A stretch of 64,000 bases of DNA from Desulfobacterales bacterium. GTDB lineage: Bacteria > Desulfobacterota > Desulfobacteria > Desulfobacterales > Desulfosalsimonadaceae. A model generated the notes under the pieces. That model ran no database searches, was not told where the DNA came from, and saw nothing but the letters and a program-made list of their open reading frames with translations. The position numbers and the translations under genes are program-made. This document shows, one piece after another, positions 25,867 to 64,000 of this stretch. Location of the stretch: positions 25,483 through 89,482 of the forward strand of contig JBKHES010000001.1 of assembly GCA_046540695.1 (NCBI GenBank). Direction: 5' to 3'. The number at the start of each line of letters is the position of its first letter. Within the stretch, counting starts at the first letter, position 1.

Positions 25867-27093
25867 GTGAAAGATCAGGAAGAAATAGTCGTAGGACTGG
25901 ATATAGGCACAACCAAGATATGCACGGTGGTTGCCGAAGTGTCCGGCGGGAATGTAAATATCATAGGCATAGGAAGTCACCCTTCAATCGGGCTGCGCAA
26001 AGGGGTTGTGGTCAACATAGACTCAACCGTTGACTCCATAAAAAAGGCAGTACAGGACGCCGAGCTTATGGCGGGGTGTGAAATCTCATCAGTGTATGCC
26101 GGTATTGCGGGCGGGCATATTACCGGGTTCAACAGCCACGGTGTGATTGCCATCAAGGGCAGCGAAATTACCCAGGCGGATGTCAACCGGGTCATAGAGG
26201 CGGCCCGTGCAGTGGCCATTCCCATGGACAGGGAAGTCATCCATGTGCTGCCCCAGGAATTCATAATAGACGGCGAGGCCGGCATCCAGAACCCCGTGGG
26301 AATGGCCGGAGTAAGGCTTGAGGCAAGGATTCACATAGTAACCGGCGCAGTGACTTCAGCGCAGAACATCGTAAAATGCGCCAATCAGGCCGGCCTTGAC
26401 GTATGCGACATTATTCTCGAGCCAATTGCCTCCTGCGAATCCGTTCTTACTCCTGAGGAACGCGAAGTGGGTACAGGCCTTATAGATCTTGGGGGCGGGA
26501 CAACCGATCTGGCCGTATTTTCAGGCAATACCATCCGTCACACCTTTGTGTTGTCGCTTGGCGGCAATAACATGACAAACGACATTTCAGTGGGTCTCCG
26601 TGTTCCGATGGCTGAAGCTGAACGCATAAAAAAGGACCACGGCACCTGTGCCCCGGACAGGATCAAAAGCGACGAAACCATCGACCTGCCGGATATAGGA
26701 AGCAGGAAAGGAAAAAAACTTCCCAGGCAGATCCTCGCTGAAATACTGGAGCCGCGCGTGGAGGAGATATTCGCCCTGCTTCGCAGGGAGGTCAATCGAT
26801 CTGCCATGAACGAGGATATCGGCTCAGGGATTGTTATCACCGGCGGCGCCTCTCTTCTGGACGGAATCTCGGAGGTTGCGGAATCAGTTTTCGAAGTCCC
26901 GGTGCGCAGGGGAACGCCGCACGGAATAAGCGGCCTGGTCGACGTAGTCAATAATCCCATGTATGCCACGGGCGTGGGCTTGGTCTTGTACGGGGCAAAA
27001 GACGAGGAGCGAAAGAAGTTCCGCATCCGGGACACAAACATTTTCCACAGGATCATAAACCGCATGAAAAGGTGGTTCAATGAAGTGATATAG
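25867..27093 (+). CDS. ftsA: Cell division protein FtsA
   Basis: GTG start after GGAGG. VVGLDIGTTKICTVVAE, actin-like ATPase blocks and a C-terminal amphipathic helix (INRMKRWFNEVI). Confidence 0.95.
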   Translation: MKDQEEIVVGLDIGTTKICTVVAEVSGGNVNIIGIGSHPSIGLRKGVVVNIDSTVDSIKKAVQDAELMAGCEISSVYAGIAGGHITGFNSHGVIAIKGSEITQADVNRVIEAARAVAIPMDREVIHVLPQEFIIDGEAGIQNPVGMAGVRLEARIHIVTGAVTSAQNIVKCANQAGLDVCDIILEPIASCESVLTPEEREVGTGLIDLGGGTTDLAVFSGNTIRHTFVLSLGGNNMTNDISVGLRVPMAEAERIKKDHGTCAPDRIKSDETIDLPDIGSRKGKKLPRQILAEILEPRVEEIFALLRREVNRSAMNEDIGSGIVITGGASLLDGISEVAESVFEVPVRRGTPHGISGLVDVVNNPMYATGVGLVLYGAKDEERKKFRIRDTNIFHRIINRMKRWFNEVI

Positions 27094-27181
27094 GGCCGTA
27101 AAAAGATGAAAACCGGGAATTCGGAACAAATCCGAAATCATAAAAAAGACATAAAACTCCAAAAATAAAAGGAGGCAGGAT

Positions 27182-28432
27182 ATGGATTTTACCTACGTAG
27201 ACCACGAAAAGTCCGCAAAAATCAAAGTTATCGGAATCGGAGGGGGCGGCGGCAATGCAGTTAACAACATGATAGACTCCCAGCTAAACGGGGTGAAATT
27301 TATTGCCGCCAATACCGATGCCCAGGCCCTGGCCCATGCAAAGGCAAACACCAAGATCCAGCTTGGCGAGCAGCTCACGCAGGGGCTGGGCGCCGGTGCA
27401 GACCCCAACGTGGGAAGGGACGCCGCACTGGAGTCTGCCGATCTTCTCCGGGAGGCCTTGAGCGAAAGCCACATGATTTTCATCGCAGCAGGCCTCGGCG
27501 GGGGCACTGGTACCGGAGCCGCACCGGTTATTGCCGAGATCTGCAAGGAGGTCGGCGCCCTTACGGTTGCTGTCGTGACAAAACCGTTTAAGTTCGAGGC
27601 AAAAAAGCGCAGCAAGCAGGCTGAAGACGGCATAGCCAGGTTAAAGGAGGTTGCAGACACTGTTATAACAATTCCAAACGACCGCCTGCGCGGGCTTGCC
27701 AAAAAAAACGCCACCCTGATAGATATGTTCAGGATGGCCGACGAGATACTTCACCATTCCGTAAAGGGCATCACCGACTTGATCATGCATCCGGGGCTGA
27801 TCAACCTGGACTTTGCAGACGTCAAAACCATCATGTCCAAGTCCGGCATGGCAATTATGGGCATAGGTATTTCCGATGGCGACAACCGTGCAATCGAGGC
27901 TGCGGAAAAGGCGATTTCCCATCCCCTTCTCGAGGACAATTCCATTTCCGGAGCCAAGGGTGTGCTGATGAATATCACGAGCAGCTCAGAACTTACAATG
28001 GAAGAAGCCATAGAGGCGTCCGAGCGGATATACAATGAAATCGGCGACGATGACGTGGAGATCATCTGGGGTACAGCCATGGATGACGGCCTTGGCGATG
28101 AAATGCGTATCACGGTTATAGCCACCGGCATAGGCGAGGAAAGCGGGGAGGATATGCATCTTCCCAGAAAGTCGGTGCGGCAGTTAAAAGATGTCAAGCG
28201 CGGAAGGGTTCGCGATTACACCACCGAAGACAGGGAATACGAAAAGACCCTTAACCAGCCAACTTTCTGGCGGGTAAAGCAGCAGGAGCAGCAGGAGCAG
28301 AAGCAGCAGGCAGAGCAGAAGAAGGAATCCGGCAGCGAACAGAAAAGAAAAAAAGCAGGAAACAGCATGGATGACTATTTTGACCTTGACATGCTCGATG
28401 TCCCGACTTTCCTGCGCAGGAAGGCTGATTAG
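27182..28432 (+). CDS. ftsZ: Cell division GTPase FtsZ
   Basis: GIGGGGGNAVNNM, GGGTGTGAAPVIAE, NDRL. The linker is Q/E/K-rich (QQEQQEQKQQAEQKK). The C-terminal peptide DYFDLDMLDVPTFLRRKAD is conserved. Confidence 0.97.
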   Translation: MDFTYVDHEKSAKIKVIGIGGGGGNAVNNMIDSQLNGVKFIAANTDAQALAHAKANTKIQLGEQLTQGLGAGADPNVGRDAALESADLLREALSESHMIFIAAGLGGGTGTGAAPVIAEICKEVGALTVAVVTKPFKFEAKKRSKQAEDGIARLKEVADTVITIPNDRLRGLAKKNATLIDMFRMADEILHHSVKGITDLIMHPGLINLDFADVKTIMSKSGMAIMGIGISDGDNRAIEAAEKAISHPLLEDNSISGAKGVLMNITSSSELTMEEAIEASERIYNEIGDDDVEIIWGTAMDDGLGDEMRITVIATGIGEESGEDMHLPRKSVRQLKDVKRGRVRDYTTEDREYEKTLNQPTFWRVKQQEQQEQKQQAEQKKESGSEQKRKKAGNSMDDYFDLDMLDVPTFLRRKAD

Positions 28433-28554
28433 GGGCGATCTGCGGAAAATTTGTTTAAAGTGCTTGACAAATGGGATCTTCCGTAATAGATGCAGTAGTT
28501 TAAATTTCTGTAATTTATTCGGCAGTCCGGAAGGCGGCGAAGGCAGCCTGATGA

Positions 28555-29268
28555 ATGGATGCCGGGCTCAACTCGGAAAGCATGCCCTCTGAAAGGAATC
28601 GCCAGAACATGTCTGATAACAAAGAACGAAAACTCGCTTACGGTATTGTACTGGCCTGCCTGGTTGTGGGGATTGTCTCCTACAGCCTGGTGAAGACCGG
28701 GGCGCCAGAAGATACCCAGGATCCCGAAGAACCGGTACGCGTTTTCTACGAGACCACCGGCGAAAACGTCCTTTTCGACCACATGACCCACAGTGAAAGC
28801 TACGGTCTTGAGTGCACAGACTGCCATCACAAGGTGGCATGGGAAAGCGAAGAGGACGTGGACATGGAGATTTCGTGCGGCAGCTGCCACACATCCGAAA
28901 GCAGCCATGAGCCCGCCCTCGGCGAAGACGGGCTGTTTGACCATGATGCTCATGTAGACGGGTACGGGCTGTCATGCACAGATTGTCATCATATGTATGA
29001 TGAAGACAGCGATGACGAGCCCCAGAACTGCAACGCATGTCACGGTGAAACCGGAGACGACGATATGCCGGGCCTTACGGACTCTTACCATCAGCAGTGC
29101 ATAGAGTGCCACGTTGATTTCGGAAGCGGCCCGACAACCGAGAACTGCAGTGACTGTCACGGGGAACGCAACAGGACTGATGCGTTTCATGACCAGTGCA
29201 TCGGTTGCCATGAAGATATGGGAACAGGACCCGCGGAAGATGATTGCGCCAGCTGCCACGGATTTTGA
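28555..29268 (+). CDS. Membrane-anchored octahaem cytochrome c (cytochrome c3 / class III-like)
   Basis: Eight CxxCH motifs: CTDCH, CGSCH, CTDCH, CNACH, CIECH, CSDCH, CIGCH, CASCH. There is an N-terminal hydrophobic anchor (LAYGIVLACLVVGIVSYSLV). Alternative start at ATG 28609 (MSDNKERK..). Confidence 0.9.
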   Translation: MDAGLNSESMPSERNRQNMSDNKERKLAYGIVLACLVVGIVSYSLVKTGAPEDTQDPEEPVRVFYETTGENVLFDHMTHSESYGLECTDCHHKVAWESEEDVDMEISCGSCHTSESSHEPALGEDGLFDHDAHVDGYGLSCTDCHHMYDEDSDDEPQNCNACHGETGDDDMPGLTDSYHQQCIECHVDFGSGPTTENCSDCHGERNRTDAFHDQCIGCHEDMGTGPAEDDCASCHGF

Positions 29269-29327
29269 TCTTTCGCGCGGCCGGGGTTTAACATCCATAA
29301 AATTCAAGCCCAAGCAAAGGGAGATCC

Positions 29328-30602
29328 ATGATTAAGAGGTCTTTTTTCGGAATCGCTGCACCAAGGCTAACCTACGATTTAATAGAGGATGTAAGGTCAG
29401 AGCCGGTTTCTGTTGAGCCGAAACAGCGGGTTACACTGTTTATAGATGCAGCTTTCAAAAACGCGGGCGACGCCCTTATCAAGAAGGGCGATTCGGTGGC
29501 TGCCGGACAGCGCCTGCAGCTTTTCGAAGACGAGCCGGCAGGGTACACCGTATCCCCTGTTTCCGGGAAAATCTCCGAGGTTTCGCCTTTCATAGGAATG
29601 ATGGAAAAACAAAGGACCGCCGTCGTCATAGACATCGAAGAGCAGGGCGGGGAAGCAGTAAACGACGGGTTCAGGGAGATATCGAAGAGTCCGGATCTCG
29701 AAGGGGCGGCACGTTTTCTTGATGCACTTCCCGGCAAACCGGATCTGGCCAGGTTTATCGATCCCGGCAGGCCTGTAAAAACAATAGTTATTCTCGGCGC
29801 TGACCGGGATCTGATGAGCGTTTCCAGTCAATATGTAATCAAGACCGGCGTTTCATCAATCAAGTCCGGCATTGACATACTTCGTAAACTAACCGGCGTG
29901 CAGAACGTTGTGCTCACGGTCGCCCAGAATCAGGTCCAGGCAGCAGGTTCCGCTGCTGCAGGCGTTAGATCTGTCGGCAACGTTTATCCATCGGCCCATC
30001 CGGAGATGATACTGAGGCATCAGCTTTATGAGCAGACAGAACAGGGCGGGATAGCCCTTCTTACTGCGGAAGCTGTTTCTGCAATAGGCGAGGCATTCAA
30101 CAGCGGTACCATCCCCCTTGAAAAAGTTATCACCGTTGTGAAAAAAGACGGCACCCGCCGGCTTGTAACCGCGCCCATGGGAACCCCGGTCTCAGATATC
30201 CTTGATGCGGTCGGAGAGAAGGTTCAGGCAGGTGATCGTCTTATTGCAGGCGGGCCAATGACAGGGGCCGCGCTGTATTCAGTGGAACAGCCTGTGGAGC
30301 AGGATACTGATACAGTGATTGTTCAGGGAAAAGATATTATAGTGGAGGGAACCGATACCCCCTGCACCAATTGCGGGGAATGCGTTCGGATCTGCCCGGT
30401 CAATATCCCGGTAAACGAATTGGTTAGATACATGGATGCCGGGGAATACGAACAGGCCGCAGAGAACGCCTCTTTGTTTTCCTGTATAGAATGCGGGCTG
30501 TGCGCGTATGTGTGCGAGTCCCGGATACCGATCTTTCAGTTTATCAGGCTGGCCAAACATGCTGTAAATCGCATGAACGCAGCGGAGGAAGCAAATGCCT
30601 AA
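29328..30602 (+). CDS. rnfC: Rnf complex subunit C-like (2x[4Fe-4S] retained; NuoF-like FMN/NADH motifs apparently absent)
   Basis: 424 aa with an NqrA/RnfC-type N-terminal barrel (IKKGDSVAAGQRL..VSPVSGKISEV), AGGPMTG, and CTNCGECVRICP plus CIECGLCAYVCE. No GGAGFP or ECEPY motifs (see findings). Confidence 0.85.
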   Translation: MIKRSFFGIAAPRLTYDLIEDVRSEPVSVEPKQRVTLFIDAAFKNAGDALIKKGDSVAAGQRLQLFEDEPAGYTVSPVSGKISEVSPFIGMMEKQRTAVVIDIEEQGGEAVNDGFREISKSPDLEGAARFLDALPGKPDLARFIDPGRPVKTIVILGADRDLMSVSSQYVIKTGVSSIKSGIDILRKLTGVQNVVLTVAQNQVQAAGSAAAGVRSVGNVYPSAHPEMILRHQLYEQTEQGGIALLTAEAVSAIGEAFNSGTIPLEKVITVVKKDGTRRLVTAPMGTPVSDILDAVGEKVQAGDRLIAGGPMTGAALYSVEQPVEQDTDTVIVQGKDIIVEGTDTPCTNCGECVRICPVNIPVNELVRYMDAGEYEQAAENASLFSCIECGLCAYVCESRIPIFQFIRLAKHAVNRMNAAEEANA

Positions 30603-31563
30603 TCGGATGAAGCTCACAGTATCACACGCCCCGTTCTGGCATGACGGGAGCAGTGTAAACACAAAGTACTACAACATAATTGCGGCCACCATGATTGCGG
30701 TTATAGCCGGCCTGCTGCAGTTCGGAGTTCCTGCTCTTGCGGTGATTGCCCTTTCGGTAGGCTCGGCCATGGCCTGGGAACTTGCCATGAACCTTGCCAT
30801 GCGCCGGCCGGTAACCATCGGAGACGGCAACGCTGCATTGATCGGCCTTCTGTTTGCGATGCTGATGCCCGCGGTTGTGCCCTGGTGGGTGGTTGTAACA
30901 GGAACTTTGATTGCCGTTGTGATAGGCAAACAGATTTACGGCGGAATAGGCGGCAACCCTTTTAATCCGGTGGTGGTAGCATATGCAATTCTTCTGATTT
31001 CCTGGCCGGTTTACCTTAATTTCAACGCAGCCCTTGTGGACTACAACTTTGATTTTAATGCCGCATACCCGCTTATGCTCTACAAGTCAATGGGCCCTGA
31101 TGCCCTGGAATCCTTCAGCACTGCGGGTCTGCTTCTGGGCAGGCAGGCAGGCGGCATAGGCACGACATTCGGGCTTGGGCTGATCATAGGCGGAATATAT
31201 TTGATTGCCAGGGGATTTATTCGCTGGGAAATTCCTGCTGCCTTTCTGGTAAGCATGTTTGTCACCGCCCTGTGCTTCAGTATTTATGATCCTGAGGTTT
31301 ACGCAGGCCCGGGGTTTCATATACTTACGGGATATACCCTCATAGGAGCCTTTTTTCTTGCCCCGGAGGATTCCTCTTCGCCGGTTAATTTTGTGCCAAT
31401 GCTCATATACGGGGCTCTTGGCGGGTTTTTAACCGTTCTTATAAGAAATATCGGCGCTCATGTGGACGGGGTTATATACGCTATCCTGATCATGAATCTG
31501 GTTCATCCGATCATACAAAAAATCAGACCCAAAGCGATGGGAAGGATTATGCATCATGCGTGA
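30595..31563 (+). CDS. rnfD: Rnf complex subunit D (polytopic membrane subunit)
   Basis: 322 aa. PWWVVVTGTLIAVVIGKQIYGGIGGNPFNPVVVAYAILLISWP is the RnfD/NqrB signature block. Confidence 0.92.
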   Translation: MPNRMKLTVSHAPFWHDGSSVNTKYYNIIAATMIAVIAGLLQFGVPALAVIALSVGSAMAWELAMNLAMRRPVTIGDGNAALIGLLFAMLMPAVVPWWVVVTGTLIAVVIGKQIYGGIGGNPFNPVVVAYAILLISWPVYLNFNAALVDYNFDFNAAYPLMLYKSMGPDALESFSTAGLLLGRQAGGIGTTFGLGLIIGGIYLIARGFIRWEIPAAFLVSMFVTALCFSIYDPEVYAGPGFHILTGYTLIGAFFLAPEDSSSPVNFVPMLIYGALGGFLTVLIRNIGAHVDGVIYAILIMNLVHPIIQKIRPKAMGRIMHHA

Positions 31564-32149
31564 AATCGTTAAAATGGTCATCGTCCTGACGGTGCTGAGC
31601 AGCCTGTCCGGCGGATTGCTTGCGGCCCTGAACAATAAGACCGAGGACCGTATTGATAACCAGGTATTAAAATTCGTCCAGGGACCGGCCGTTGAAAAGA
31701 TCATGGAGGGTGCTGAAAATGACCCGGTTAAAGACAGGTTCTCGCTTAGTATTGATGATGAGGATACGGACTTTTTCGTAGGAATATTTGACGGCGAGCC
31801 CAGGACGGTTGCACTTGAAACCTCTGCCTCGGGCTATGGCGGAGACGTGGGAGTGATTGTTGCAATAGACGTTGAAAAAGGTGAGATTTTCGGCGTGGAG
31901 GTTACAACGCATAATGAGACGCCGGGTATCGGTGCAACCGTAGAAACCAACGAGGACTTCAAAGGGGAGTTCGAGGGAATGGAACTTGACGGGGATTTCG
32001 CGGTAAAGGACGACGACGGCGACATAACGGCCATTGCCGGAGCGACTGTAACGTCCCGCGCTGTCTGCAAGGCCGTGCGCAGGGCTGCCGACATTTACCA
32101 GGAGAAGAGATCGCAAATCAATGACCAGGTGAAAACCTTTACCGGCTAG
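31556..32149 (+). CDS. rnfG: Rnf complex subunit G (FMN-binding)
   Basis: 197 aa with an N-terminal TM helix, ETPGIG, and the flavinylation motif ITAIAGATVTSRAV. Confidence 0.92.
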   Translation: MREIVKMVIVLTVLSSLSGGLLAALNNKTEDRIDNQVLKFVQGPAVEKIMEGAENDPVKDRFSLSIDDEDTDFFVGIFDGEPRTVALETSASGYGGDVGVIVAIDVEKGEIFGVEVTTHNETPGIGATVETNEDFKGEFEGMELDGDFAVKDDDGDITAIAGATVTSRAVCKAVRRAADIYQEKRSQINDQVKTFTG

Positions 32150-32162
32150 GAGTGAATCCATT

Positions 32163-32756
32163 ATGGCAAAAACCATCGGGCAGGAATTTGTAAAAGGCTT
32201 ATGGGAAGAGATCCCTCCATTTCGACTGGTGCTCGGGCTTTGCCCGACGCTTGCAGTGACAAAGTCGGTTGAAAACGGTATAGGGATGGGGCTTGCAACC
32301 ACATTCGTGCTGGTATGCGCCAATCTTCTGGTTTCAATATTAAGCGGCGTCATTCCTTCAAAGATCAGGATCGCATGTTTTATCATTATTATAGCCACCT
32401 TTGTGACAGTGGTTGAGCTGATGATGCAGGCCTACACCTACCAGTTGTTCCAGGAGCTGGGGATATTTATCCCCTTGATCGTGGTAAACTGTATCGTGCT
32501 TGGAAGATCCGAGGCATTTGCTTCCAAAAACCCCATTGTGCCTTCTGTTGCAGACGGTCTTGGCATAGGCATCGGGTTTACCCTTTCGCTGACAGCAATC
32601 AGCGCTGTACGCGAAAGCCTCGGAAGCGGCACTCTTATGGGTGCCGAGGTGTTCGGTTCTTCCTATGAGCCCTTATCATTCATGGTGGAGGCGCCTGGTG
32701 CTTTCATCTGCCTCGGGCTGCTTTTGTGCCTGATGAATATTGTCAGTAAAAAATAA
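32163..32756 (+). CDS. rnfE: Rnf complex subunit E
   Basis: 197 aa. LGLCPTLAV and VVNCIVLGR blocks (conserved Cys pair). Confidence 0.93.
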   Translation: MAKTIGQEFVKGLWEEIPPFRLVLGLCPTLAVTKSVENGIGMGLATTFVLVCANLLVSILSGVIPSKIRIACFIIIIATFVTVVELMMQAYTYQLFQELGIFIPLIVVNCIVLGRSEAFASKNPIVPSVADGLGIGIGFTLSLTAISAVRESLGSGTLMGAEVFGSSYEPLSFMVEAPGAFICLGLLLCLMNIVSKK

Positions 32757-32858
32757 ACGTCCGCCCTTCCGCAATACAAATGTCAACGGGGGACTTGAAA
32801 ACTATATGCTGCCCGGCCTGAAGGCGGCCGGTTAACTAGGAGGCACGGGAGAAATATT

Positions 32859-33434
32859 ATGGGCGACTATCTGGTCCTGATAATCAGCAGCATGCTGATC
32901 AATAACATCGTTCTGGCGCAGTACCTGGGAATATGCCCGTTTATCGGCACTTCCAAGAAAATGGAAACCGCAACAGGCATGGCCGGAGCTGTTGTATTTG
33001 TCATGACCCTGGCTGCTATCATAACGTGGTGCATAGACACGTATCTTTTGAAAACCCTGGGTATTGAATATCTGCGGACCATTGCGTTTATTCTCGTTAT
33101 TGCCTCTCTGGTGCAGTTCGTGGAAATGTTTCTCAAGAAAAGCATTCCCGCCCTTTATGCCGGGCTCGGAATATTCCTCCCCCTTATTACCACAAACTGC
33201 GCGGTCATGGGTGTCTGCCTGATAAATATTCAGGAGGAATATATTTTCATTGAGGCTCTGGTTTCCTCGATTGCCTATGCTCTTGGTTTCGGGATCGCCC
33301 TGATTCTTTTCGCAGGTGTACGCGAGCGTGTGGTGCTCGGCAGGGTGCCCAAACCTCTGCAGGACACTTCAATCGCTCTTGTTACCGCCGGCATGCTGGC
33401 GCTTGCGTTTATCGGTTTCAGGGGGCTTGTTTAG
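32859..33434 (+). CDS. rnfA: Rnf complex subunit A
   Basis: 191 aa. LGICPFIG and TTNCAVMGV blocks. GGAGG RBS. Confidence 0.93.
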   Translation: MGDYLVLIISSMLINNIVLAQYLGICPFIGTSKKMETATGMAGAVVFVMTLAAIITWCIDTYLLKTLGIEYLRTIAFILVIASLVQFVEMFLKKSIPALYAGLGIFLPLITTNCAVMGVCLINIQEEYIFIEALVSSIAYALGFGIALILFAGVRERVVLGRVPKPLQDTSIALVTAGMLALAFIGFRGLV

Positions 33435-33502
33435 AGTCAATAAGTGATTATAATACGTTTTCAGTTGGATAAAATCTGATATATCAATAAAAGAGGCATA
33501 AG

Positions 33503-35584
33503 GTGATAGAAGCAATACTGTTTACCCTTGGGCTGGGAGGCACATGCGGAGTAGCACTAAGTGTGGCTTCCAGGATATTCTACGTTTATGAGGACCCGCG
33601 GATTGCCAGGGTGGAAGATCTGCTGGCGGGGGCCAACTGCGGCGGATGCGGCTATACCGGGTGCTCTGCAGCAGCCGAGGCTATTGTCAACGGTGAAGCT
33701 GCTCCCAACGCTTGCATACTGATCGGTCCTGATAATGTAGCTGAGATCGCTGCGATAATGGGCTCGGAAGCCGGAACCGCAGAACCCTACAAATCCTACA
33801 ACAACTGCCAGGGCGGTGACCGTGCCACTGACAGGTTTTTTTATCAGGGATTGAACCGGTGCAGTGCAGTCAGTTCCCTTTACGGCGGCAAGAGAGACTG
33901 CAGCATCGGGTGCCTCGGATTTGGTGACTGTGTGCGTGCATGCAAGTTCGACGCCCTGGAAATCGGTCCCAACGGATACCCTATTGTTGACAAGGATAAA
34001 TGCGTCGGCTGCGGGGCATGCGAGATAGTCTGCCCCAAGTCAATTATCGAGGTAAAGACCATGTCCCAGCGTCTTTTGCATCTCAATACCGAAGAAGACG
34101 CCCTTTCGCCCTGTCAGCAGACATGTCCCGCGGAAATCGATATCCCCCGTTATATAGACCACATAAGGCAGGGCGAATATGAGTCCGCCGTTGATACCAT
34201 AAGAGAGCGCAATCCGCTGCTGCTTGCCTGCGGCAGGGTGTGTCCCCATCCCTGCGAGGAATACTGCAGAAGAGCCATAGAAGACGAAGAGTCGGTTTCC
34301 ATTAACCAGCTAAAGCGTTTTGTGGCTGACATGGAGATGACTTCTGGCAAGAGACTGCCCATTTCCCGGGCTCCTGATACAGGAAAAAAGGTGGCAGTAA
34401 TCGGCGGCGGTCCTGCCGGGCTGAGCTGTGCCTACTTTCTCCGGCGTGTCGGGCACAGTGTAAACATATTTGAGGCCATGCCTAAGCTGGGAGGCATGCT
34501 CAGATACGGAATTCCTGAATACAGGCTTCCCAAGGCAGTACTTGATTGGGAAATTCAGGGAATACTGAATCTGGGGATTGAGCATCACAGCAACGTAAAG
34601 ATGGGCGTGGACTTTGACCTTGGCTCTCTGATCGGAGCAGGATTTGATGCAATATTTATGGGCGTAGGATCCTGGAAGGACTATAAGCTCAATATTCCCG
34701 GCGAGGATTTAGAAGGCTGTTATACAGGAATTGATTTTCTTTCCCGTATCGGCAACCAGCAGCCCGTTGAGGTAGGCAAGCGTGCCGCAGTTATAGGGGG
34801 CGGCAATACGGCCATTGACTGTGCAAGAACCCTGGTGCGTTTAGGGCTTGAAAAGGTCTACATTGTATATCGCCGCACCCGCAAGGAAATGCCCGCCAAT
34901 GAAGTTGAAATCGTGGCAGCCGGGCACGAGGGAATTGAATCCGTTTTTCTTGCGGCTCCCAACAAGGTGCTCGGAGATGACCAGGACAGGGTGAAAGGTC
35001 TTGAATATTTAAAGATGGAACTGGGCGAACCTGATGCCAGCGGACGCAGGAGGCCTGTGCCGGTGGAGGGATCTGAAACTGTGCTCGATGTTGATACGAT
35101 AATCACTGCCATCGGGCAGTCCACTGATACCACCTTCCGTACTCCCGGAACCCGGATGGACGAGCTAAATATTACCCGGTGGGGCACAATTGACGTTGAT
35201 CCGGGAACATGCCGCTCCAATGTTCCCTATATATTTGCAGCAGGAGACGGGGCAACAGGGCCCGCTCTTGTAGTGGACGCCATCGGAGGCGGCAGGCGGG
35301 CAGCCAGGGCGATAGACATGTTTCTCAAGGGCAGGGAGGTCAAGCCCGAGCCCGGGGCACTCTTGTCCCAGAGGCATATTCCGGAGTCATTGTTTGAGAG
35401 GGTCCCGGGAATTAAGAAGAGCAAAAGAGCCGAGATGCCTGAGATGCCGGTCCGCGAAAGGTGCTCTAATTTCCTTGAGGTTGACCAGGTTCTGCCGGAA
35501 CCCGAAGCAATCAGCGAAGCCGTTCGCTGCCTGAATTGCTGCAGATTATGTTATGATCCTGACAGTGATCAAAATGCTGCATAA
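33503..35584 (+). CDS. rnfB: RnfB fused to a GltD/NfnB/SudA-like NAD(P)H-dependent FAD/Fe-S oxidoreductase
   Basis: 693 aa, GTG start. Residues 1-~190 are RnfB: a TM helix, NCGGCGYTGC, and CLGFGDCVRAC plus CVGCGACEIVCP. Residues ~200-693 carry CQQTCPAEIDIP, GRVCPHPCEEYC, KKVAVIGGGPAGL (FAD), AAVIGGGNTAIDCA with VYIVYRR (NAD(P)H), FAAGDG and a terminal CLNCCRLC. Confidence 0.88.
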   Translation: MIEAILFTLGLGGTCGVALSVASRIFYVYEDPRIARVEDLLAGANCGGCGYTGCSAAAEAIVNGEAAPNACILIGPDNVAEIAAIMGSEAGTAEPYKSYNNCQGGDRATDRFFYQGLNRCSAVSSLYGGKRDCSIGCLGFGDCVRACKFDALEIGPNGYPIVDKDKCVGCGACEIVCPKSIIEVKTMSQRLLHLNTEEDALSPCQQTCPAEIDIPRYIDHIRQGEYESAVDTIRERNPLLLACGRVCPHPCEEYCRRAIEDEESVSINQLKRFVADMEMTSGKRLPISRAPDTGKKVAVIGGGPAGLSCAYFLRRVGHSVNIFEAMPKLGGMLRYGIPEYRLPKAVLDWEIQGILNLGIEHHSNVKMGVDFDLGSLIGAGFDAIFMGVGSWKDYKLNIPGEDLEGCYTGIDFLSRIGNQQPVEVGKRAAVIGGGNTAIDCARTLVRLGLEKVYIVYRRTRKEMPANEVEIVAAGHEGIESVFLAAPNKVLGDDQDRVKGLEYLKMELGEPDASGRRRPVPVEGSETVLDVDTIITAIGQSTDTTFRTPGTRMDELNITRWGTIDVDPGTCRSNVPYIFAAGDGATGPALVVDAIGGGRRAARAIDMFLKGREVKPEPGALLSQRHIPESLFERVPGIKKSKRAEMPEMPVRERCSNFLEVDQVLPEPEAISEAVRCLNCCRLCYDPDSDQNAA

Positions 35585-35612
35585 CTAAATCATACCCTCC
35601 CCCCCTGTAATA

Positions 35613-35649
35613 CGAAAGTCGCGGGCGATTAATTCGCCTGCGGCTTTCG
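35613..35649 (+). terminator. Stem-loop after rnfB (possible terminator)
   Basis: CGAAAGTCGCGGGCGA-ttaat-TCGCCTGCGGCTTTCG, a ~16-bp stem including G-T pairs, 29 nt after the stop. The downstream T-run is weak (cgttt). Confidence 0.4.
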
Positions 35650-35763
35650 CGTTTGAGGCCGGCTTCTGCTGATTCTTTACAAAATTTCCGTATGCTGGTA
35701 TTTATAAATAAGAAAGAGAATGCTGGTCTTGCCCTGGTTCAAATGAGTGCACGGAGGTGAAAT

Positions 35764-36363
35764 ATGGCTGTGAGCCCTGATCAGAAGAGAAAGCAGATCG
35801 AAAACGAGCTTATTTCACTGAGGCGCCAGGCTGATGAAATGGATGCAAGGATCCGGGCATATCTTTCAGACCGTAAAAACAAGCCTCATCCGCGTCACCA
35901 GGAGCTTATAGAAAAAGTCCAGAGATACAGGATCAATCCCTCGGTTTCAACAAAACGTCTTGAGACCATGCTCGATAATCTTCAGTGGAAGATATATTAT
36001 TACAGCCGTGCCTGGCGTCAGCTCTGGGACAACGCGGATGCAGCAAGAAGGCGGGAGGAAATCAGAGAAAAAACTTCACCTGACCAGCCCGGCGGCTCTG
36101 TTGAATCCGGCCGATCATCACGGGACCACGACAGGATCTATTCAGTGGACAGGCTCTGGGAGATCCAGAAGCAAAAGCTTTCAGCGCTGGGTGACGACCC
36201 GGCCCCTGAAAGCAGGGAAGGCTTTATAAAGCGGATACGGGAGAGATATGGAAAGCTGGCCTCTGAGAAAAAACAGGATGAAGAAATAGTCATGAGGTTT
36301 GACAAAAAGAGCCGCCGGTGCACCCTGTCGCTTAAAAAACGGGATCGTGTCCCGGAGCAGTAG
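35764..36363 (+). CDS. Hypothetical highly charged protein (no family recognised)
   Basis: 199-aa ORF with a strong RBS (GGAGGTG 5 nt upstream). It is Lys/Arg/Glu-rich with a predicted coiled character. Its last 32 nt overlap the convergent rluD 3' end. Confidence 0.55.
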   Translation: MAVSPDQKRKQIENELISLRRQADEMDARIRAYLSDRKNKPHPRHQELIEKVQRYRINPSVSTKRLETMLDNLQWKIYYYSRAWRQLWDNADAARRREEIREKTSPDQPGGSVESGRSSRDHDRIYSVDRLWEIQKQKLSALGDDPAPESREGFIKRIRERYGKLASEKKQDEEIVMRFDKKSRRCTLSLKKRDRVPEQ

Positions 36364-37381
36364 AAATGTTTTCAGGATCGGCAATCTGCCTTCCCATATG
36401 CCTGAGAATTGATTCTCGGAGCGCGGTCATGTCTCCGGGCAGCGGGGCTGAAAAAAAAACGCGTCTGCCGCTCTCAGGGTGACTGAAGGCGATTTTCGCC
36501 GCGTGAAGCATCTGCCTGGGTGCGGCGGCAATCATCCCCGCCAGTGCGGGATCCGACTTATGCTGGCGGCCGGGGTTTTTGTACCCGTAAACCCTGTCTC
36601 CTATTAGAGGATGCCCTGTGGAGGACAGGTGCACGCGGATCTGGTGGGTCCTGCCTGTTTTTATGATGCATTCCAGCATTGCAGATGATCTCCAGCGTTC
36701 CACCACCTTCCAAAGTGTCTCTGCATGCCTTGTTTTTTCGCCGCTGACATTTTCTGTTGTCATTTTTTTTCTGTGAACCGGGTGTCTGCGGATAGGCAGG
36801 GTTATCTTTCCTTCATCCGTATCAGGGCTGCCGTGGACAAAAGCTATATAGGTTTTTTCAACGCTGCGGGCTTTGAACTGCGCGGAAAGGCTCTGCCATG
36901 ATTCCGGGTTCCTTGCAATCACCAACAGGCCTGATGTGTCCTTGTCAAGGCGGTGGATGATGCCCGGCCTTTCGGGCTGCTCACACACGCTGCGCAGTTC
37001 CGGGAAATGATAGACAAGACCGTGGACAAGGGTGCCTGAGTAATTGCCTGCCGCGGGGTGTACTACGAGGCCTGCAGGCTTGTTGATAACTATAACCGAG
37101 CGGTCCTTGAATACAACGTCTATGTCAAGGGGCTCAGCCTCAAGCTGGCAGGATTGCTCCGCTGCACCGGCTTGATATGTGACTGTGTCTGCACTGGATA
37201 GCCTGTAACCAGGCTTTTTTTCGAAGCCATTGACAAGTACACGGCCTTCTTTAATCATGCGCGCCGCGGTATTTCGGGAGCAACCCGGCACGCTTGATGA
37301 CACGGCAAGATCCAGCCTTATACCGTCATCCTCAGGCCCGACAGTCAATGTTATTAATTCGGGATTCCTGACTGACGTCAT
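36332..37381 (-). CDS. rluD: RluA-family 23S rRNA pseudouridine synthase (RluD-like)
   Basis: N-terminal S4 domain, catalytic HRLDKDTSGLLVIA, and ..GRTHQIRVHL... Confidence 0.9.
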   Translation of the reverse strand: MTSVRNPELITLTVGPEDDGIRLDLAVSSSVPGCSRNTAARMIKEGRVLVNGFEKKPGYRLSSADTVTYQAGAAEQSCQLEAEPLDIDVVFKDRSVIVINKPAGLVVHPAAGNYSGTLVHGLVYHFPELRSVCEQPERPGIIHRLDKDTSGLLVIARNPESWQSLSAQFKARSVEKTYIAFVHGSPDTDEGKITLPIRRHPVHRKKMTTENVSGEKTRHAETLWKVVERWRSSAMLECIIKTGRTHQIRVHLSSTGHPLIGDRVYGYKNPGRQHKSDPALAGMIAAAPRQMLHAAKIAFSHPESGRRVFFSAPLPGDMTALRESILRHMGRQIADPENISTAPGHDPVF

Positions 37382-37938
37382 TCACCCTTGTCTGCGCCGT
37401 TGCCGTTGCTGCTGAAAAGGGACTCGATTTCCGCCCAGACCTTATCTTCGTCCTGGTCTTTGGCGGTGCAGATTTCCCGAACCAGCAGTGCCTTGGCAGT
37501 GTCCAGGAGTTTGCGTTCCCCGAAGGACAGATCCTTGGTCAGTTTAAGCAGGTAAAGATCCCGGAACACCGCTGCAACATCATAGGGGGAGCCTGTCTTG
37601 AGCCTTTCCATGTATTCCTTGTAACGCCGGTTCCAGGTCTGATTGTCCTGTATGTCGTGGTGCTGATCCGCAAGGACAGAGTAGACCTCCGGGATTTCCC
37701 CCTTGCCAATGACCGAGCGCAAACCAACGGACTCAACATTTGATGTGGGGATCATGATGACCATGCCGTTGTCGATGATTTTCATTATGTAAAAATCATG
37801 AGTATCGCCGTTGATTACCCGGCTTTCAATGGATTCGATTTGTCCTACCCCGTGGGCGGGGTATACTGCCAAGTCGCCGACCTGGAACCCTTCGCCGGGG
37901 GTCTTTTGGGATTGTGCTTTTTCAGCCATTTTTATCAC
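37378..37938 (-). CDS. carD: CarD/CdnL-family RNA-polymerase-binding transcription factor
   Basis: FQVGDLAVYPAHGVGQIESIESRVINGDTHDFYIMKI is the typical CarD_TRCF N-terminal domain. Stop and start overlap rluD (ATGA). Confidence 0.9.
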   Translation of the reverse strand: MIKMAEKAQSQKTPGEGFQVGDLAVYPAHGVGQIESIESRVINGDTHDFYIMKIIDNGMVIMIPTSNVESVGLRSVIGKGEIPEVYSVLADQHHDIQDNQTWNRRYKEYMERLKTGSPYDVAAVFRDLYLLKLTKDLSFGERKLLDTAKALLVREICTAKDQDEDKVWAEIESLFSSNGNGADKGE

Positions 37939-38002
37939 CCAAACTTAATGCAAGGTTTATTCCTAAAAAAACAACACCTAACATTTTTTTGAGATGAAAT
38001 CA

Positions 38003-38034
38003 ACAAAAAAAGGGCCGGTGAAATTCACCGGCCC
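38003..38034 (-). terminator. Rho-independent terminator of hppA
   Basis: The minus strand reads GGGCCGGTGA-att-TCACCGGCCC followed by TTTTTTTT, 30 nt after the hppA stop (38064). Confidence 0.85.
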
Positions 38035-38063
38035 TTCGCTAAATATTATTACAGGTTATGAAA

Positions 38064-40130
38064 TTACAGCAGAAACGGCACCATCAGCAGTGCTACCACG
38101 TTGAGCACCTTGATCATCGGGTTGACTGCGGGGCCGGCTGTGTCCTTGTAGGGGTCGCCTACGGTGTCGCCGGTAACAGCGGCCTTGTGAGCATCGCTGC
38201 CCTTGCCGCCGAAATAGCCGTCTTCAATGTATTTCTTGGCATTGTCCCATGCGGCTCCGCCGGTGCACATGGAAATTGCAACAAACAGACCTGTTACAAT
38301 ACTTCCGATGAGCACGCCTCCCAGGGCGATTTTGCCGAGGAACAGGCCCACAAGGATCGGGGTGATGACGGGCAGAAGTGCCGGAACCATCATCTCCTTG
38401 AGGGCGAACTTGGTGACGATGTCAACGCACCTTCCGTAGTCCGGCTTTGAAGTTCCCTCCATAATGCCGGGAATCTCCCTGAACTGCCTGCGGACTTCGT
38501 CCACAACCGCGCCGCCTGCACGTCCGACCGCGTTCATTGCGATAGAGGTGAACAGGAAGGGCAGCAGGCCGCCTATAAACAGCCCGATAATAATGTATGG
38601 GTCGCTTAGTTCGAATGCCAGTTCAGCTGCAGCTTCATCGGTTCCGGCCTGGATGACGAATTCCTGGACGTAGCAGGAAAACAGAACCAGTGCCGCGAGA
38701 CCGGCAGAACCGATGGCATAGCCCTTTGTAACTGCCTTGGTTGTGTTGCCCACTGCATCAAGGGGATCCGTGACAGCGCGAACACTTTCATCCATTTCCG
38801 CCATTTCGGCAATACCGCCTGCATTGTCGGTGATCGGGCCGTATGCGTCAATTGCGATAACCATTCCTGTCATAGACAGCATGGCCACTGCGGCAATTGC
38901 AATGCCGTAGAGGTCTGCCAGTCCGTATGCTATGCCGATGCCCACGCAGATTGCAAGCACGGGAAGAGCAGTGGACTGAAGGCTGACTGCAAGACCGGCT
39001 ATAATGTTGGTGCCGTGGCCTGTTGTTGAGGCCTCTGCAATGCCTTTAACCGGGCCGTAGGTACCGGTATAGTATTCTGTGATAATGACGATGAGAACTG
39101 TTAGCACAAGTCCCACCAGTGAGGAATAAAACAGGTTCATGGCGGGAATGCCTCCGATGCTGTCAACCGCGGTTATGGTGAAGATGTAAAACGCGATTGC
39201 AGCAAGGATGGCTGCTCCGAACATCCCCTTGTAAAGGGCGCCCATGATGTATTCATCCTTGCCCATGCGGACAAACAAAGTTGCAATGATCGAGGCGATA
39301 ATGGAGATGGCTCCCAGGATCATGGGGTAGTTGACAGCCATTGCCTCGCCTTCGAAAAACAGGCTGCCCAGCAGCATTGCAGCAACAACCGTTACTGCAT
39401 AGGTCTCAAACAGGTCTGCTGCCATGCCTGCACAGTCGCCTACATTATCGCCGACGTTGTCTGCGATTGTGGCGGGGTTTCTCGGGTCGTCTTCCGGGAT
39501 CCCTGCTTCTACCTTGCCCACCAGGTCTGCTCCGACGTCAGCGCCCTTGGTGAATATGCCGCCGCCGAGACGCGCGAAGATTGAAACGAGGCTGCCGCCG
39601 AATCCCAGTGCCACAAGCGGGGCAATAGAGTGAACCTCTCCTGCCTCTGCGTCCATGGTCAGGACGGTATAGAAGCCTGCTATTGCGGTGAGCGCAAGGC
39701 TGGCAACGAGCATACCCGTGACAGAGCCTCCCCGGAACGCCATTTTCAGGCCTGCGGCAAGTCCGTCCTTTGCAGCTTCAGCAGTGCGGATGTTTGCAAT
39801 TACTGAAACCCGCATACCGATGTAGCCCGCCAGATAGGAAGCCACTGCACCTATGGCAAAGCCGACCGCGGTACTCGTTCCTATGGTGTCGGAATAAAAC
39901 TGGCTTAAGTAAAGGATGATAAAAATCACCACGCCAACGATGGCCATGCTTTTCAGCTGCCGGTGCAGATACGCGATGGCGCCTTCCTGCACCGCGTTGG
40001 CGATTTCCACCATTTTTTCAGAGCCGGTGGGTGCGCTTTTGATGATGCCGGCAACGACCAGGGAATAAATAATCCCAATCACTCCGACGATGGTGCAAGT
40101 TAGAGAAACATTCTCCAGTAGAACTTCCAT
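38064..40130 (-). CDS. hppA: Membrane-bound proton-translocating pyrophosphatase (K+-independent type)
   Basis: 688 aa, ~16 TM helices. [26 protein letters not shown] and [31 protein letters not shown] carries Lys rather than Ala, the signature of K+-independent H+-PPases. Confidence 0.95.
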
Positions 40131-63592: not shown

Positions 63593-64000
63593 TCAGTGGC
63601 ATACCCCGCATTTTTCAACCCCGCTGCCGGTGTCCTGCCGGGGGACATGTCTGGCGCCGGTGATGGTCGGTTTGAACCTGTCAGAACGCCTGGCTTTTTT
63701 TTCAAGCGACATTATTGCGGCCAGTGCGAGAAAGAACCCGCCAAATCCCGTTACTGCTGAAAACACAGAGGCGTCAAAGCCGAAGCCCGCTGCTGTTTCG
63801 TTACCTATAATCGCTCCTGCGAGCAAAGCGATTATGGGGAATATGTAGAGCAGCAAGGAAAGCTGCAGCATTTTGCCGCTGGCAAATTCCAGTGTAACCC
63901 TGTCTCCGACCCTTGCATGAACTGGATTCAGGGCCTCTATTTCCATTTCCTTGCCGCCTCCCATGCTGTGGCAGGTGCTTTTTTCCGAGCAGCCTTCACA
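63593..64000 (-). CDS. rseC: RseC/MucC-family (SoxR-reducing system) protein, C-terminal part (start lies beyond the window end)
   Basis: The frame stays open upstream of the track's Met to the window edge (CEGCSEKSTCHSMGGG..), giving the Cys-rich N-terminus. It continues ..ALNPVHARVGDRVTLEF.. plus two TM helices, the typical RseC layout. Confidence 0.7.
   Translation of the reverse strand, partial: CEGCSEKSTCHSMGGGKEMEIEALNPVHARVGDRVTLEFASGKMLQLSLLLYIFPIIALLAGAIIGNETAAGFGFDASVFSAVTGFGGFFLALAAIMSLEKKARRSDRFKPTITGARHVPRQDTGSGVEKCGVCH

Follow-up and report, generated by a model that had tools for sequence, protein, structure and literature searches.

The closest described relative of the system examined here is the Rnf2, or 'D. 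toluolica Tol2-type', complex of Desulfobacterales. The Tol2-type Rnf goes back to the genome paper on Desulfobacula toluolica Tol2 (Wöhlbrand et al. 2013, Environ Microbiol 15:1334), as summarized by Dörries et al. (2016, PMC5109826). Desulfococcus multivorans encodes Rnf2 beside an Acetobacterium woodii-type Rnf1, and five of its six Rnf2 subunits were found in each of the conditions tested (PMC5109826). A later study placed Rnf2 in the core genome of the Desulfobacteraceae, reported that it is abundantly and constitutively formed, and noted a cytochrome c3 gene within the Rnf2 cluster (PMC11887813, 2025). In the scheme proposed there, ferredoxin, 'and maybe also NADH', is oxidized and the cytochrome is reduced, followed by Qrc. 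The remaining subunits are called 'very similar' in the Rnf2 papers. Our literature search found no enzymology of Rnf2, the published evidence being proteomic, and the strings 'Desulfo', 'cytochrome c' and 'fused' occur nowhere in the text of a 2025 Rnf/Nqr review. Every Rnf chain that we matched among solved structures was of the classical type.

We analyzed a 64,000-nucleotide (nt) stretch of DNA from a Desulfobacterales bacterium (contig JBKHES010000001.1, positions 25,483 to 89,482; hereafter the window, with positions counted from its first letter). An earlier note on this DNA had pointed to an RnfB fused translationally to a GltD/NfnB-like NAD(P)H flavoprotein, and had left open whether such an architecture had been described. 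It has: the fusion is the RnfB of an Rnf2 complex, published under the names Tol2-type and Rnf2 (PMC5109826, PMC11887813). The window encodes an RnfB of ~700 amino acids (aa; 693 in this case) with a pyridine-nucleotide oxidoreductase domain (Pyr_redox_2, 118 bits), an RnfC without Complex1_51K and SLBB, and a cytochrome c within the cluster (28555-29268). Details that we did not find in the Rnf2 papers are the affiliation of the flavoprotein with non-bifurcating enzymes and its Lys271, a permuted cysteine segment, an NADPH-type YRRTR motif and the missing flavinylation threonine of RnfD. Our analysis further adds a graded decay of RnfC and a census of operon types.

The fusion gene (33503-35584, + strand) is one open reading frame (ORF) with a GTG start and no internal stop, and the ribosome-binding site AGAGG lies immediately 5' of it. 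As the earlier note had read it, the 693-aa protein starts as an RnfB, with a hydrophobic N-terminal helix (aa 2-26) and the CGGCGYTGC cluster domain, FdI (C46GGC49GYTGC54...C71). The two ferredoxin motifs given there as CxxCxxCxxxCP fared differently: C167-C177 is canonical, whereas C133-C147 is spaced CxxxCx5CxxxC. The switch of character placed near nt 34100 corresponds to aa 200, and no stop intervenes. Beyond it we observed both predicted Fe-S motifs of the flavoprotein (CQQTCP, aa 204-209; GRVCPHPCEEYC, aa 244-255), the flavin adenine dinucleotide (FAD) motif VAVIGGGPAGL (aa 297-307) and the NAD(P)H motif AAVIGGGNTAIDCA (aa 428-441) with VYIVYRR (aa 452-458).

Domain assignment with profile hidden Markov models, a check proposed in the same note, detected both the RnfB and the GltD-like half. 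In Pfam, FeS (PF04060) matched aa 41-72 (43.2 bits, cut-off 23) and a Fer4 dicluster aa 136-183, followed by Fer4_20 (aa 202-281, 83 bits) and Pyr_redox_2 (aa 295-596). In NCBIfam, RnfB models span aa 2-191 (TIGR01944, 75.7 bits, above the 68.7 cut-off), and PRK12771, 'NAD(P)-binding protein', spans aa 196-685 (E = 2.6e-153). A normal RnfB makes up residues 1-190, and a GltD/NfnB-like module, complete with Fe-S, FAD and NAD(P)H sites, makes up residues 196-685. The module has a Fer4_20 domain with two [4Fe-4S] sites, for which eight cysteines are conserved (204, 208, 243, 247, 251, 255, 676 and 679), and the GxGxxG and GxGxxA motifs for FAD and NAD(P)H. An AlphaFold model of the fusion protein from a 71-sequence alignment had a mean predicted local distance difference test score (pLDDT) of 73.6, with values mostly of 75-95 over the FAD and NAD(P)H Rossmann domains (aa 295-596) and poor values for aa 90-141 and the last residues. 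We discarded a model from a 19-sequence alignment (mean pLDDT 57.7, Fe-S parts below 50).

To survey related genomes, as the note had advised, we searched GTDB species genomes with N-terminal RnfB sequence patterns and confirmed the hits by tblastn. This gave 555 stretches, of which we examined the best 80 loci; all 80 match aa 1 to ~690 in one frame and carry the same fusion. A two-part protein of 686-713 aa was present in more than 120 clusters (90% identity; NCBI, JGI, ENA and Logan assemblies) at 64-88% identity to the window protein, and the closest relatives of the window stood at 88-89% identity. The junction residues L191, P203 and C204 are invariant among fusions. The hosts are Desulfobacterales: Desulfobacteraceae, Desulfosarcina, Desulfobacula, Desulfobacter, Desulfonema and metagenome-assembled genomes related to Desulfosalsimonas. 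Because the same fusion with its conserved junction recurs in so many independent clusters and in 80/80 loci, complete genomes included, a mis-assembly or missed stop can for practical purposes be dismissed, and the prospect that an error of sequencing or assembly joined two genes is negligible.

The RnfB half aligned to residues 8-195 of Clostridium tetanomorphum RnfB (7zc6_B, 274 aa; E = 2.5e-50) and to residues 2-195 of A. woodii RnfB (9eri_B). All of its cysteines, including C133-C177, C102 and C120, are kept in 81/81 sequences. It has the transmembrane helix and FdI, the FdII dicluster and the two interface cysteines, and rnfA, rnfC, rnfD, rnfE and rnfG are encoded with it. In the solved Rnf complex, residues 8-195 span the transmembrane helix, the mobile FdI, the RnfC-interface segment and FdII, and the FdIII of C. 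tetanomorphum RnfB is the modeled ferredoxin docking site (PMC9588780). Since the RnfB alignment ends at residue 195, the flavoprotein replaces the distal FdIII end and is not appended to a complete RnfB.

This bears on the published suggestion of a dual-donor Rnf. The RnfB clusters would still take electrons mainly from ferredoxin; the module would either add NAD(P)H as a second donor or act as a tethered ferredoxin:NADP+ oxidoreductase that equilibrates the two pools at the entry to the pump, with exit through the cytochrome and ion export. The Rabus group takes the added domain to mean 'interaction with NAD+/NADH in addition to ferredoxin' and proposes a route from ferredoxin, perhaps with NADH, to cytochrome c3 and Qrc (PMC11887813). 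FdI and FdII clusters are fully conserved, and stand-alone NfnB-like proteins are ferredoxin:NADP+ oxidoreductases (PMC12221290). However, the part that the module has replaced is FdIII, the ferredoxin dock modeled for C. tetanomorphum, and Pfam and NCBIfam scans found no ferredoxin gene in the operon. We consider the dual-donor reading the strongest rival of our own, though unlikely.

Profile matches gave the operon order octaheme cytochrome c, rnfC-D-G-E-A, and the rnfB fusion as the last gene. The census of the 80 loci found this complete order in 52, which is every canonical-order locus with at least 4.95 kb of upstream DNA. Another 15 loci are shortened by a contig end, six have the fusion first and cytochrome-rnfCDGEA downstream, and seven have no rnf neighbor. 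Two of these seven (L018 and L026; Table 1) have 9 kb on both sides, and no other rnf gene lies within 9 kb on either side of their full-length fusion genes. The neighbors of the L018 fusion are regulators, an IF-2B-like gene, a protease and ArgJ, nothing redox-related.

RnfC of the window scored 157 bits against TIGR01945, below the cut-off of 246. It had no Complex1_51K (PF01512) match even at E ≤ 1, and SLBB (PF10531) reached 13 bits. LDALPGKPD and LGADRDL stand where C. tetanomorphum RnfC (7zc6_C) has GIVGMGGATFP and NAAECEP, and the RnfC that binds flavin mononucleotide (FMN) and NADH in classical Rnf was not found. The eight cysteines (346-396) of its two [4Fe-4S] motifs are kept in 59/59 homologues. 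NqrA matches were weak (NF003761, 97 bits; NQRA_2nd, 22.7 bits, below cut-off). The earlier note had offered a second or a relocated NAD(P)H site as options. Because this RnfC lacks the FMN/NADH domain and its GMGGATFP and AECEP motifs, the site in the window is relocated, not duplicated.

RnfD scored 225 bits against TIGR01946 (cut-off 207). In alignments to 9eri_D (A. woodii) and 7zc6_D (C. tetanomorphum), its AYPL faces ATPL, and Tyr158 (~nt 31066-31068) takes the position of C. tetanomorphum Thr153, to which FMN is covalently bound in the solved structure. Among 63 homologues adjoining fusions, Y, H, A, D or V stands here, and T or S in none; an [ST]GA[ST] motif occurs nowhere in the window RnfD. 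The AGAT of RnfG (Thr174) aligns with the AGAT of Azotobacter vinelandii RnfG; most relatives have SGAT, and (S/A/G)GAT is kept among homologues. C26/C114 of RnfA and C27/C110 of RnfE are conserved. By homology to NqrD/E, we take these cysteines to hold an intramembrane Fe center.

These observations bear on two further readings. A true Nqr analogue would take in NAD(P)H at RnfB and reduce menaquinone at an RnfD/RnfC site, as NqrB/NqrA do, with the cytochrome as an accessory. The input polarity is Nqr-like and the degenerate RnfC gives weak NqrA matches, but RnfD lacks the FMN threonine that Nqr needs en route to quinone, and RnfC, unlike NqrA, keeps two Fe-S clusters. Moreover, a cytochrome is co-encoded in 52/52 complete operons, and the family is also reported to use genuine Nqr/Nuo complexes (PMC11887813). 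We regard this reading as improbable. Retention in RnfC of both clusters and nothing else might instead point to an inverted Rnf, in which NAD(P)H reacts at RnfB and ferredoxin at the exposed RnfC [4Fe-4S] clusters, so that the complex is still a ferredoxin:NAD(P)+ oxidoreductase with its ends swapped. In solved Rnf and Nqr complexes, however, ion export is coupled to electrons running from B to G (PMC9588780). As the exergonic direction would run with ion import, we infer that such a complex would conserve no energy, and the missing RnfD FMN site breaks the G to D to C route. An inverted Rnf is very improbable.

The cytochrome matched Cytochrom_CIII and Cytochrome_C7 in Pfam, and its closest solved relatives were the HmcA C-terminal domain, type II c3 and NhcA. 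Cytochromes of this kind are subunits of redox complexes in the membrane (Hmc, Tmc and Nhc). The gene lies 5' of rnfC in 52/52 canonical-order loci with enough upstream DNA. The protein is very acidic and has eight hemes, compared to 4-5 in most relatives (homologues have 4, 5 or 8).

The best solved match of the flavoprotein half by sequence was NfnA of Caldicellulosiruptor NfnABC (9bov_A, E = 1e-134), followed by Thermococcus sibiricus NfnABC (9n5u_A) and Sporomusa ovata StnC (8oh5_C). NfnB/NfnL of Thermotoga maritima and Pyrococcus furiosus, GltD and dihydropyrimidine dehydrogenase (DPD) ranked behind them. Foldseek with the AlphaFold model from 71 sequences gave the same ranking, with 9bov_A, 9n5u_A and 8oh5_C first. 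Fer4_20 (PF14691) was matched only over profile positions 30-111, and the tail at aa 639-683 aligned to T. maritima NfnB residues 2-42 and to the segments that follow the flavoprotein in 9bov_A, 9n5u_A and 8oh5_C. By these alignments, the first cysteine pair, RCLxC, is circularly permuted to the C-terminus, as in the NfnABC/StnC subgroup. Because the tail is the missing first Fer4_20 segment, the last 50 residues belong to the Fe-S site and are no spare tail. The GltD-type module of the earlier note is thus a flavoprotein with Fe-S, FAD and NAD(P)H sites as stated, but not a plain GltD: its first cysteine pair is C-terminal, and it is most closely related to the NADPH-input domains of NfnABC and StnABC. 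C676, C679 and C683 are kept in at least 80/81 sequences. C680 and C683 are nearly invariant among close relatives, and C680 is Gly in distant fusions. We dropped, on account of this Gly, a count of 24 conserved Fe-S-type cysteines as six [4Fe-4S] clusters with C680/C683 paired with C102/C120.

Lys271 is invariant in 71 fusion sequences and aligns with StnC K170; the T. maritima NfnB residue at this position is Glu. This proximal-cluster ligand is Lys in the non-bifurcating StnC and Glu in the bifurcating NfnB. In NfnABC and StnABC, the NADPH-input domain passes electrons singly into an Fe-S wire, and bifurcation takes place elsewhere in the enzyme. The NfnB/NfnL fold, that of the bifurcating subunit of NfnAB (4ylf_B, 5jca_L), would suit electron bifurcation at the FAD, with NADPH split between ferredoxin at low potential and the membrane chain or cytochrome at high potential. 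Yet the nearest homologues are non-bifurcating, Lys271 replaces Glu at the proximal [4Fe-4S] cluster, and profile scans of the genes at 25.9-40.1 kb found no NfnA-like partner (FNR-like FAD plus [2Fe-2S]). Bifurcation at this site is highly improbable.

GGGPAG and GGGNTA...YRRTRKEMPAN are conserved in 80 fusions. The nucleotide motif VYIVYRRTRKEMPAN fits the YRR(T/S)xxEMPA of the NADPH enzymes 4ylf_B, 9bov_A and 8oh5_C, and it is kept as YRRTR(K/N)EMPAN across the 80 fusions. By motif similarity to these enzymes, NADPH appears to be the likelier nucleotide.

Together, the conserved residues form an intact chain of cofactor sites that begins at NAD(P)H/FAD, passes two Fer4_20 clusters, then FdII, FdI and the RnfA/RnfE cysteines, and ends at the FMN site of RnfG. 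Our tentative reading, with a little less than an even chance of being right, is that the complex works reversibly as an ion-translocating NADPH:cytochrome c oxidoreductase, its polarity like that of Nqr. NADPH would be oxidized at the FAD of the NfnB-like module that stands in for the FdIII end. The FAD would release single electrons through its two [4Fe-4S] clusters to FdII and FdI of RnfB. Electrons would then cross the membrane via the RnfA/RnfE center to the covalent FMN of RnfG, the step that drives Na+/H+ export in known Rnf/Nqr complexes. They would leave through the co-encoded membrane-anchored octaheme cytochrome c, onward to Qrc, Dsr or Tmc. RnfC and RnfD may be kept mainly as a structural or ion-channel half, like NqrA and NqrB. 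In the Rnf of Methanosarcina acetivorans, NAD(P) is not used, electrons go to a co-transcribed multiheme cytochrome and Na+ is pumped (PMC4023990). Cofactor content, NADPH preference, cytochrome exit, direction of flow and ion coupling are what we infer from the locus.

It is possible, though we hold this more loosely than a working assumption, that such complexes form a third functional class of Rnf/Nqr pumps: NADPH-driven, cytochrome c-reducing and reversible to NADP+ reduction driven by the cytochrome. The class would have converged with Na+-NQR by a graft on the B side and the loss of the RnfD and RnfC flavins, leaving the RnfG FMN as the sole hand-over to the cytochrome.

Several points weigh against an NADPH:cytochrome c oxidoreductase. 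Our literature search found no enzyme assay for any Rnf2 complex, and cytochromes were almost never detected by proteomics (PMC11887813). The strict conservation of all eight RnfC cluster cysteines is not explained by a purely structural role. Some fusion operons, such as L081, have no adjacent cytochrome gene, and a few fusion genes (L018, L026) have no rnf neighbor at all. The RnfD threonine is also lost beside an ordinary 268-aa RnfB (L084), and its loss is thus a clade trait. NADPH preference reflects motif similarity, and a distant fusion, L083, has FFCLENR. The step from NADPH to cytochrome c would have to leave enough driving force for ion export, which depends on the heme potentials.

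We compared the window with four related loci in which its traits are combined differently (L081-L084; Table 1). The glycine-rich FMN loop (GMGGAxFP) was present in 0/4 of their RnfC proteins, and Complex1_51K was still matched at 22-69 bits in L081-L083. By alignments and profile scores, RnfC decay is graded across loci and complete in the lineage of the window. In L081- and L082-type lineages, the fusion could provide an extra nucleotide site in place of a relocated one, even though the FMN loop is not conserved in their RnfC. L083, with FFCLENR in place of YRR, may be an NADH-type variant or may run in the direction H2 to cytochrome to NAD(P)+. Some fusions have a cytochrome gene next to them and others do not.

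L084 has an ordinary RnfB, and its RnfD also lacks the FMN threonine. We therefore rejected loss of this threonine as a consequence of the fusion; it is a trait of a deltaproteobacterial-type clade. We also searched RnfD over 1.8 billion cluster representatives and compared the ~30 nearest clusters (50% identity) with more distant ones. The nearest mostly lack the ATPL threonine, and the farther clusters almost all have [ST]xATPL; L081-L084 are genomic contexts of such threonine-less variants. L084 raises the question whether cytochrome-linked Rnf complexes generally differ from the clostridial model.

Table 1. Features of the window and of related loci.
Feature	Position	Strand	Remarks
Membrane-anchored octaheme cytochrome c, first operon gene	28555..29268	+	8 CxxCH, N-terminal hydrophobic anchor
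rnfC, degenerate	29328..30602	+	424 aa; FMN/NADH domain lost, two [4Fe-4S] motifs kept
rnfD, without flavinylation threonine	30595..31563	+	TIGR01946, 225 bits
rnfG, periplasmic FMN subunit	31556..32149	+	AGAT, Thr174; NF045876 RnfG_DVU2794, 235 bits
rnfE	32163..32756	+	TIGR01948, 243 bits
rnfA	32859..33434	+	TIGR01943, 256 bits
rnfB fused to NfnB/GltD-like NADPH flavoprotein (nucleotide by motif)	33503..35584	+	693 aa, last rnf gene of operon
RnfB part	33503..34051	+	Transmembrane helix aa 1-26, FdI aa 41-72, interface segment C102/C120, FdII dicluster aa 133-183
Fer4_20 Fe-S domain, aa 202-281	34106..34345	+	PF14691, 83 bits; contains Lys271
FAD and NAD(P)H Rossmann domains, aa 295-596	34385..35290	+	PF07992, 118 bits
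C-terminal tail, aa 639-683	35417..35551	+	Permuted first segment of NfnB Fe-S domain; RC676LNC679C680RLC683
ftsA-ftsZ	25867-28432		Gap of 122 nt to the rnf operon
Highly charged ORF directly 3' of rnfB	35764-36363	+	199 aa
Pseudouridine synthase, CarD-family regulator and membrane H+-pyrophosphatase genes	36332-40130	-	After the operon
RseC/MucC-like ORF	63596-64000	-	Partial at window end
Related locus L081	L081:6652-14117		Fusion RnfB 696 aa; RnfC Complex1_51K 69 bits; no adjacent cytochrome; apbE directly after rnfB
Related locus L082	L082:6655-12949		Fusion RnfB 699 aa; RnfC Complex1_51K 33 bits; large multiheme cytochrome downstream
Related locus L083	L083:5179-13927		Fusion RnfB; RnfC Complex1_51K 22 bits; cytochrome c gene on both flanks; small-subunit gene of a NiFe-hydrogenase just downstream
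Related locus L084	L084:6111-11746		Ordinary RnfB 268 aa; RnfC Complex1_51K 76 bits; cytochrome c3, then rnfCDGEA-B, Desulfovibrio-like
Fusion gene of L018	L018:8995-11064		
Fusion gene of L026	L026:9001-11055		

The rnf operon lies directly behind ftsA-ftsZ, and genes on the opposite strand follow it. The charged ORF 3' of rnfB had no Pfam or NCBIfam match; it is kept in position in 11 loci among the closest relatives (44-73% identity) but not in more distant ones. At the end of the window, 28 kb from the rnf operon, a partial ORF resembles the RseC/MucC-family gene that adjoins rnfB in L082 and L084 (30% identity over 138 aa, E = 7e-19). We detected no gene for an ApbE flavin transferase in the window. 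A promoter and terminator scan of 28300-36500 gave counts not above those of shuffles, and therefore does not define the transcription unit.

Much of the carbon oxidation in marine sediments is credited to the Desulfobacteraceae, whose core genome reportedly includes Rnf2 (PMC11887813). The substrates of Rnf2 decide by which routes electrons of NAD(P)H and ferredoxin reach sulfate reduction and how much ion gradient is gained. If the Nqr-like reading is true, Rnf became a pyridine-nucleotide-driven pump twice, by different grafts.

Compared to the Rnf2/Tol2-type complex, the window has all defining traits, including a Desulfobacterales host, and nothing essential differs; the heme number of its cytochrome, given above, exceeds that of most relatives. 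With classical Rnf (A. woodii and C. tetanomorphum; 9eri, 7zc6), it shares the six subunits in the order rnfCDGEAB, the transmembrane helix, FdI and FdII of RnfB, the RnfA/RnfE cysteines and the RnfG FMN motif. It differs in having a 500-aa flavoprotein for FdIII, an RnfC without the FMN/NADH site, an RnfD without the FMN threonine, and an added cytochrome c.

Na+-NQR resembles the predicted complex in that a membrane-anchored Fe-S flavoprotein oxidizes pyridine nucleotide and feeds the RnfA/RnfE (NqrD/E) center, and in that the RnfC/NqrA homologue lacks the nucleotide and FMN site. The inputs differ, however: an NfnB-like FAD with [4Fe-4S] clusters in the window, an FNR-like NqrF with [2Fe-2S] in NQR. 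The window RnfC keeps two clusters, its RnfD lacks the NqrB-type FMN, and its likely acceptor is a cytochrome, not quinone. Pfam and NCBIfam gave no NqrF-type match in the fusion protein, and Tyr158 occupies the site at which the NqrB/RnfD homologue would carry covalent FMN. Because the parts are unrelated, the likeness amounts to convergence and not membership. M. acetivorans Rnf with MmcA is alike in its RnfC, which makes no use of NAD(P), in the co-transcribed multiheme cytochrome c proposed to accept electrons from RnfG, and in pumping Na+ (PMC4023990). There, the donor is ferredoxin on an ordinary RnfB, whereas the RnfB of the window bears its own NAD(P)H dehydrogenase.

For the flavoprotein itself, the NADPH-input domain of NfnABC and StnABC (9bov_A, 9n5u_A, 8oh5_C) is the closest counterpart, with the same permuted cysteine segment, proximal-cluster Lys and YRR(T/S)xxEMPA motif, and with a like role as a two-electron to one-electron converter feeding an Fe-S wire. 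That domain sits inside soluble proteins of 950-1180 aa, between [2Fe-2S] and Fdh/NuoG-like domains; in the window, it is C-terminal to a membrane-anchored RnfB, with no further domain after it. NfnB/NfnL, GltD and DPD domains I-III share Fer4_20 and the two-Rossmann fold. The window protein differs from them in the order of the first cysteine segment, in Lys for the Glu of NfnB, and in having no partner domain of the NfnA, GltB or DPD type.

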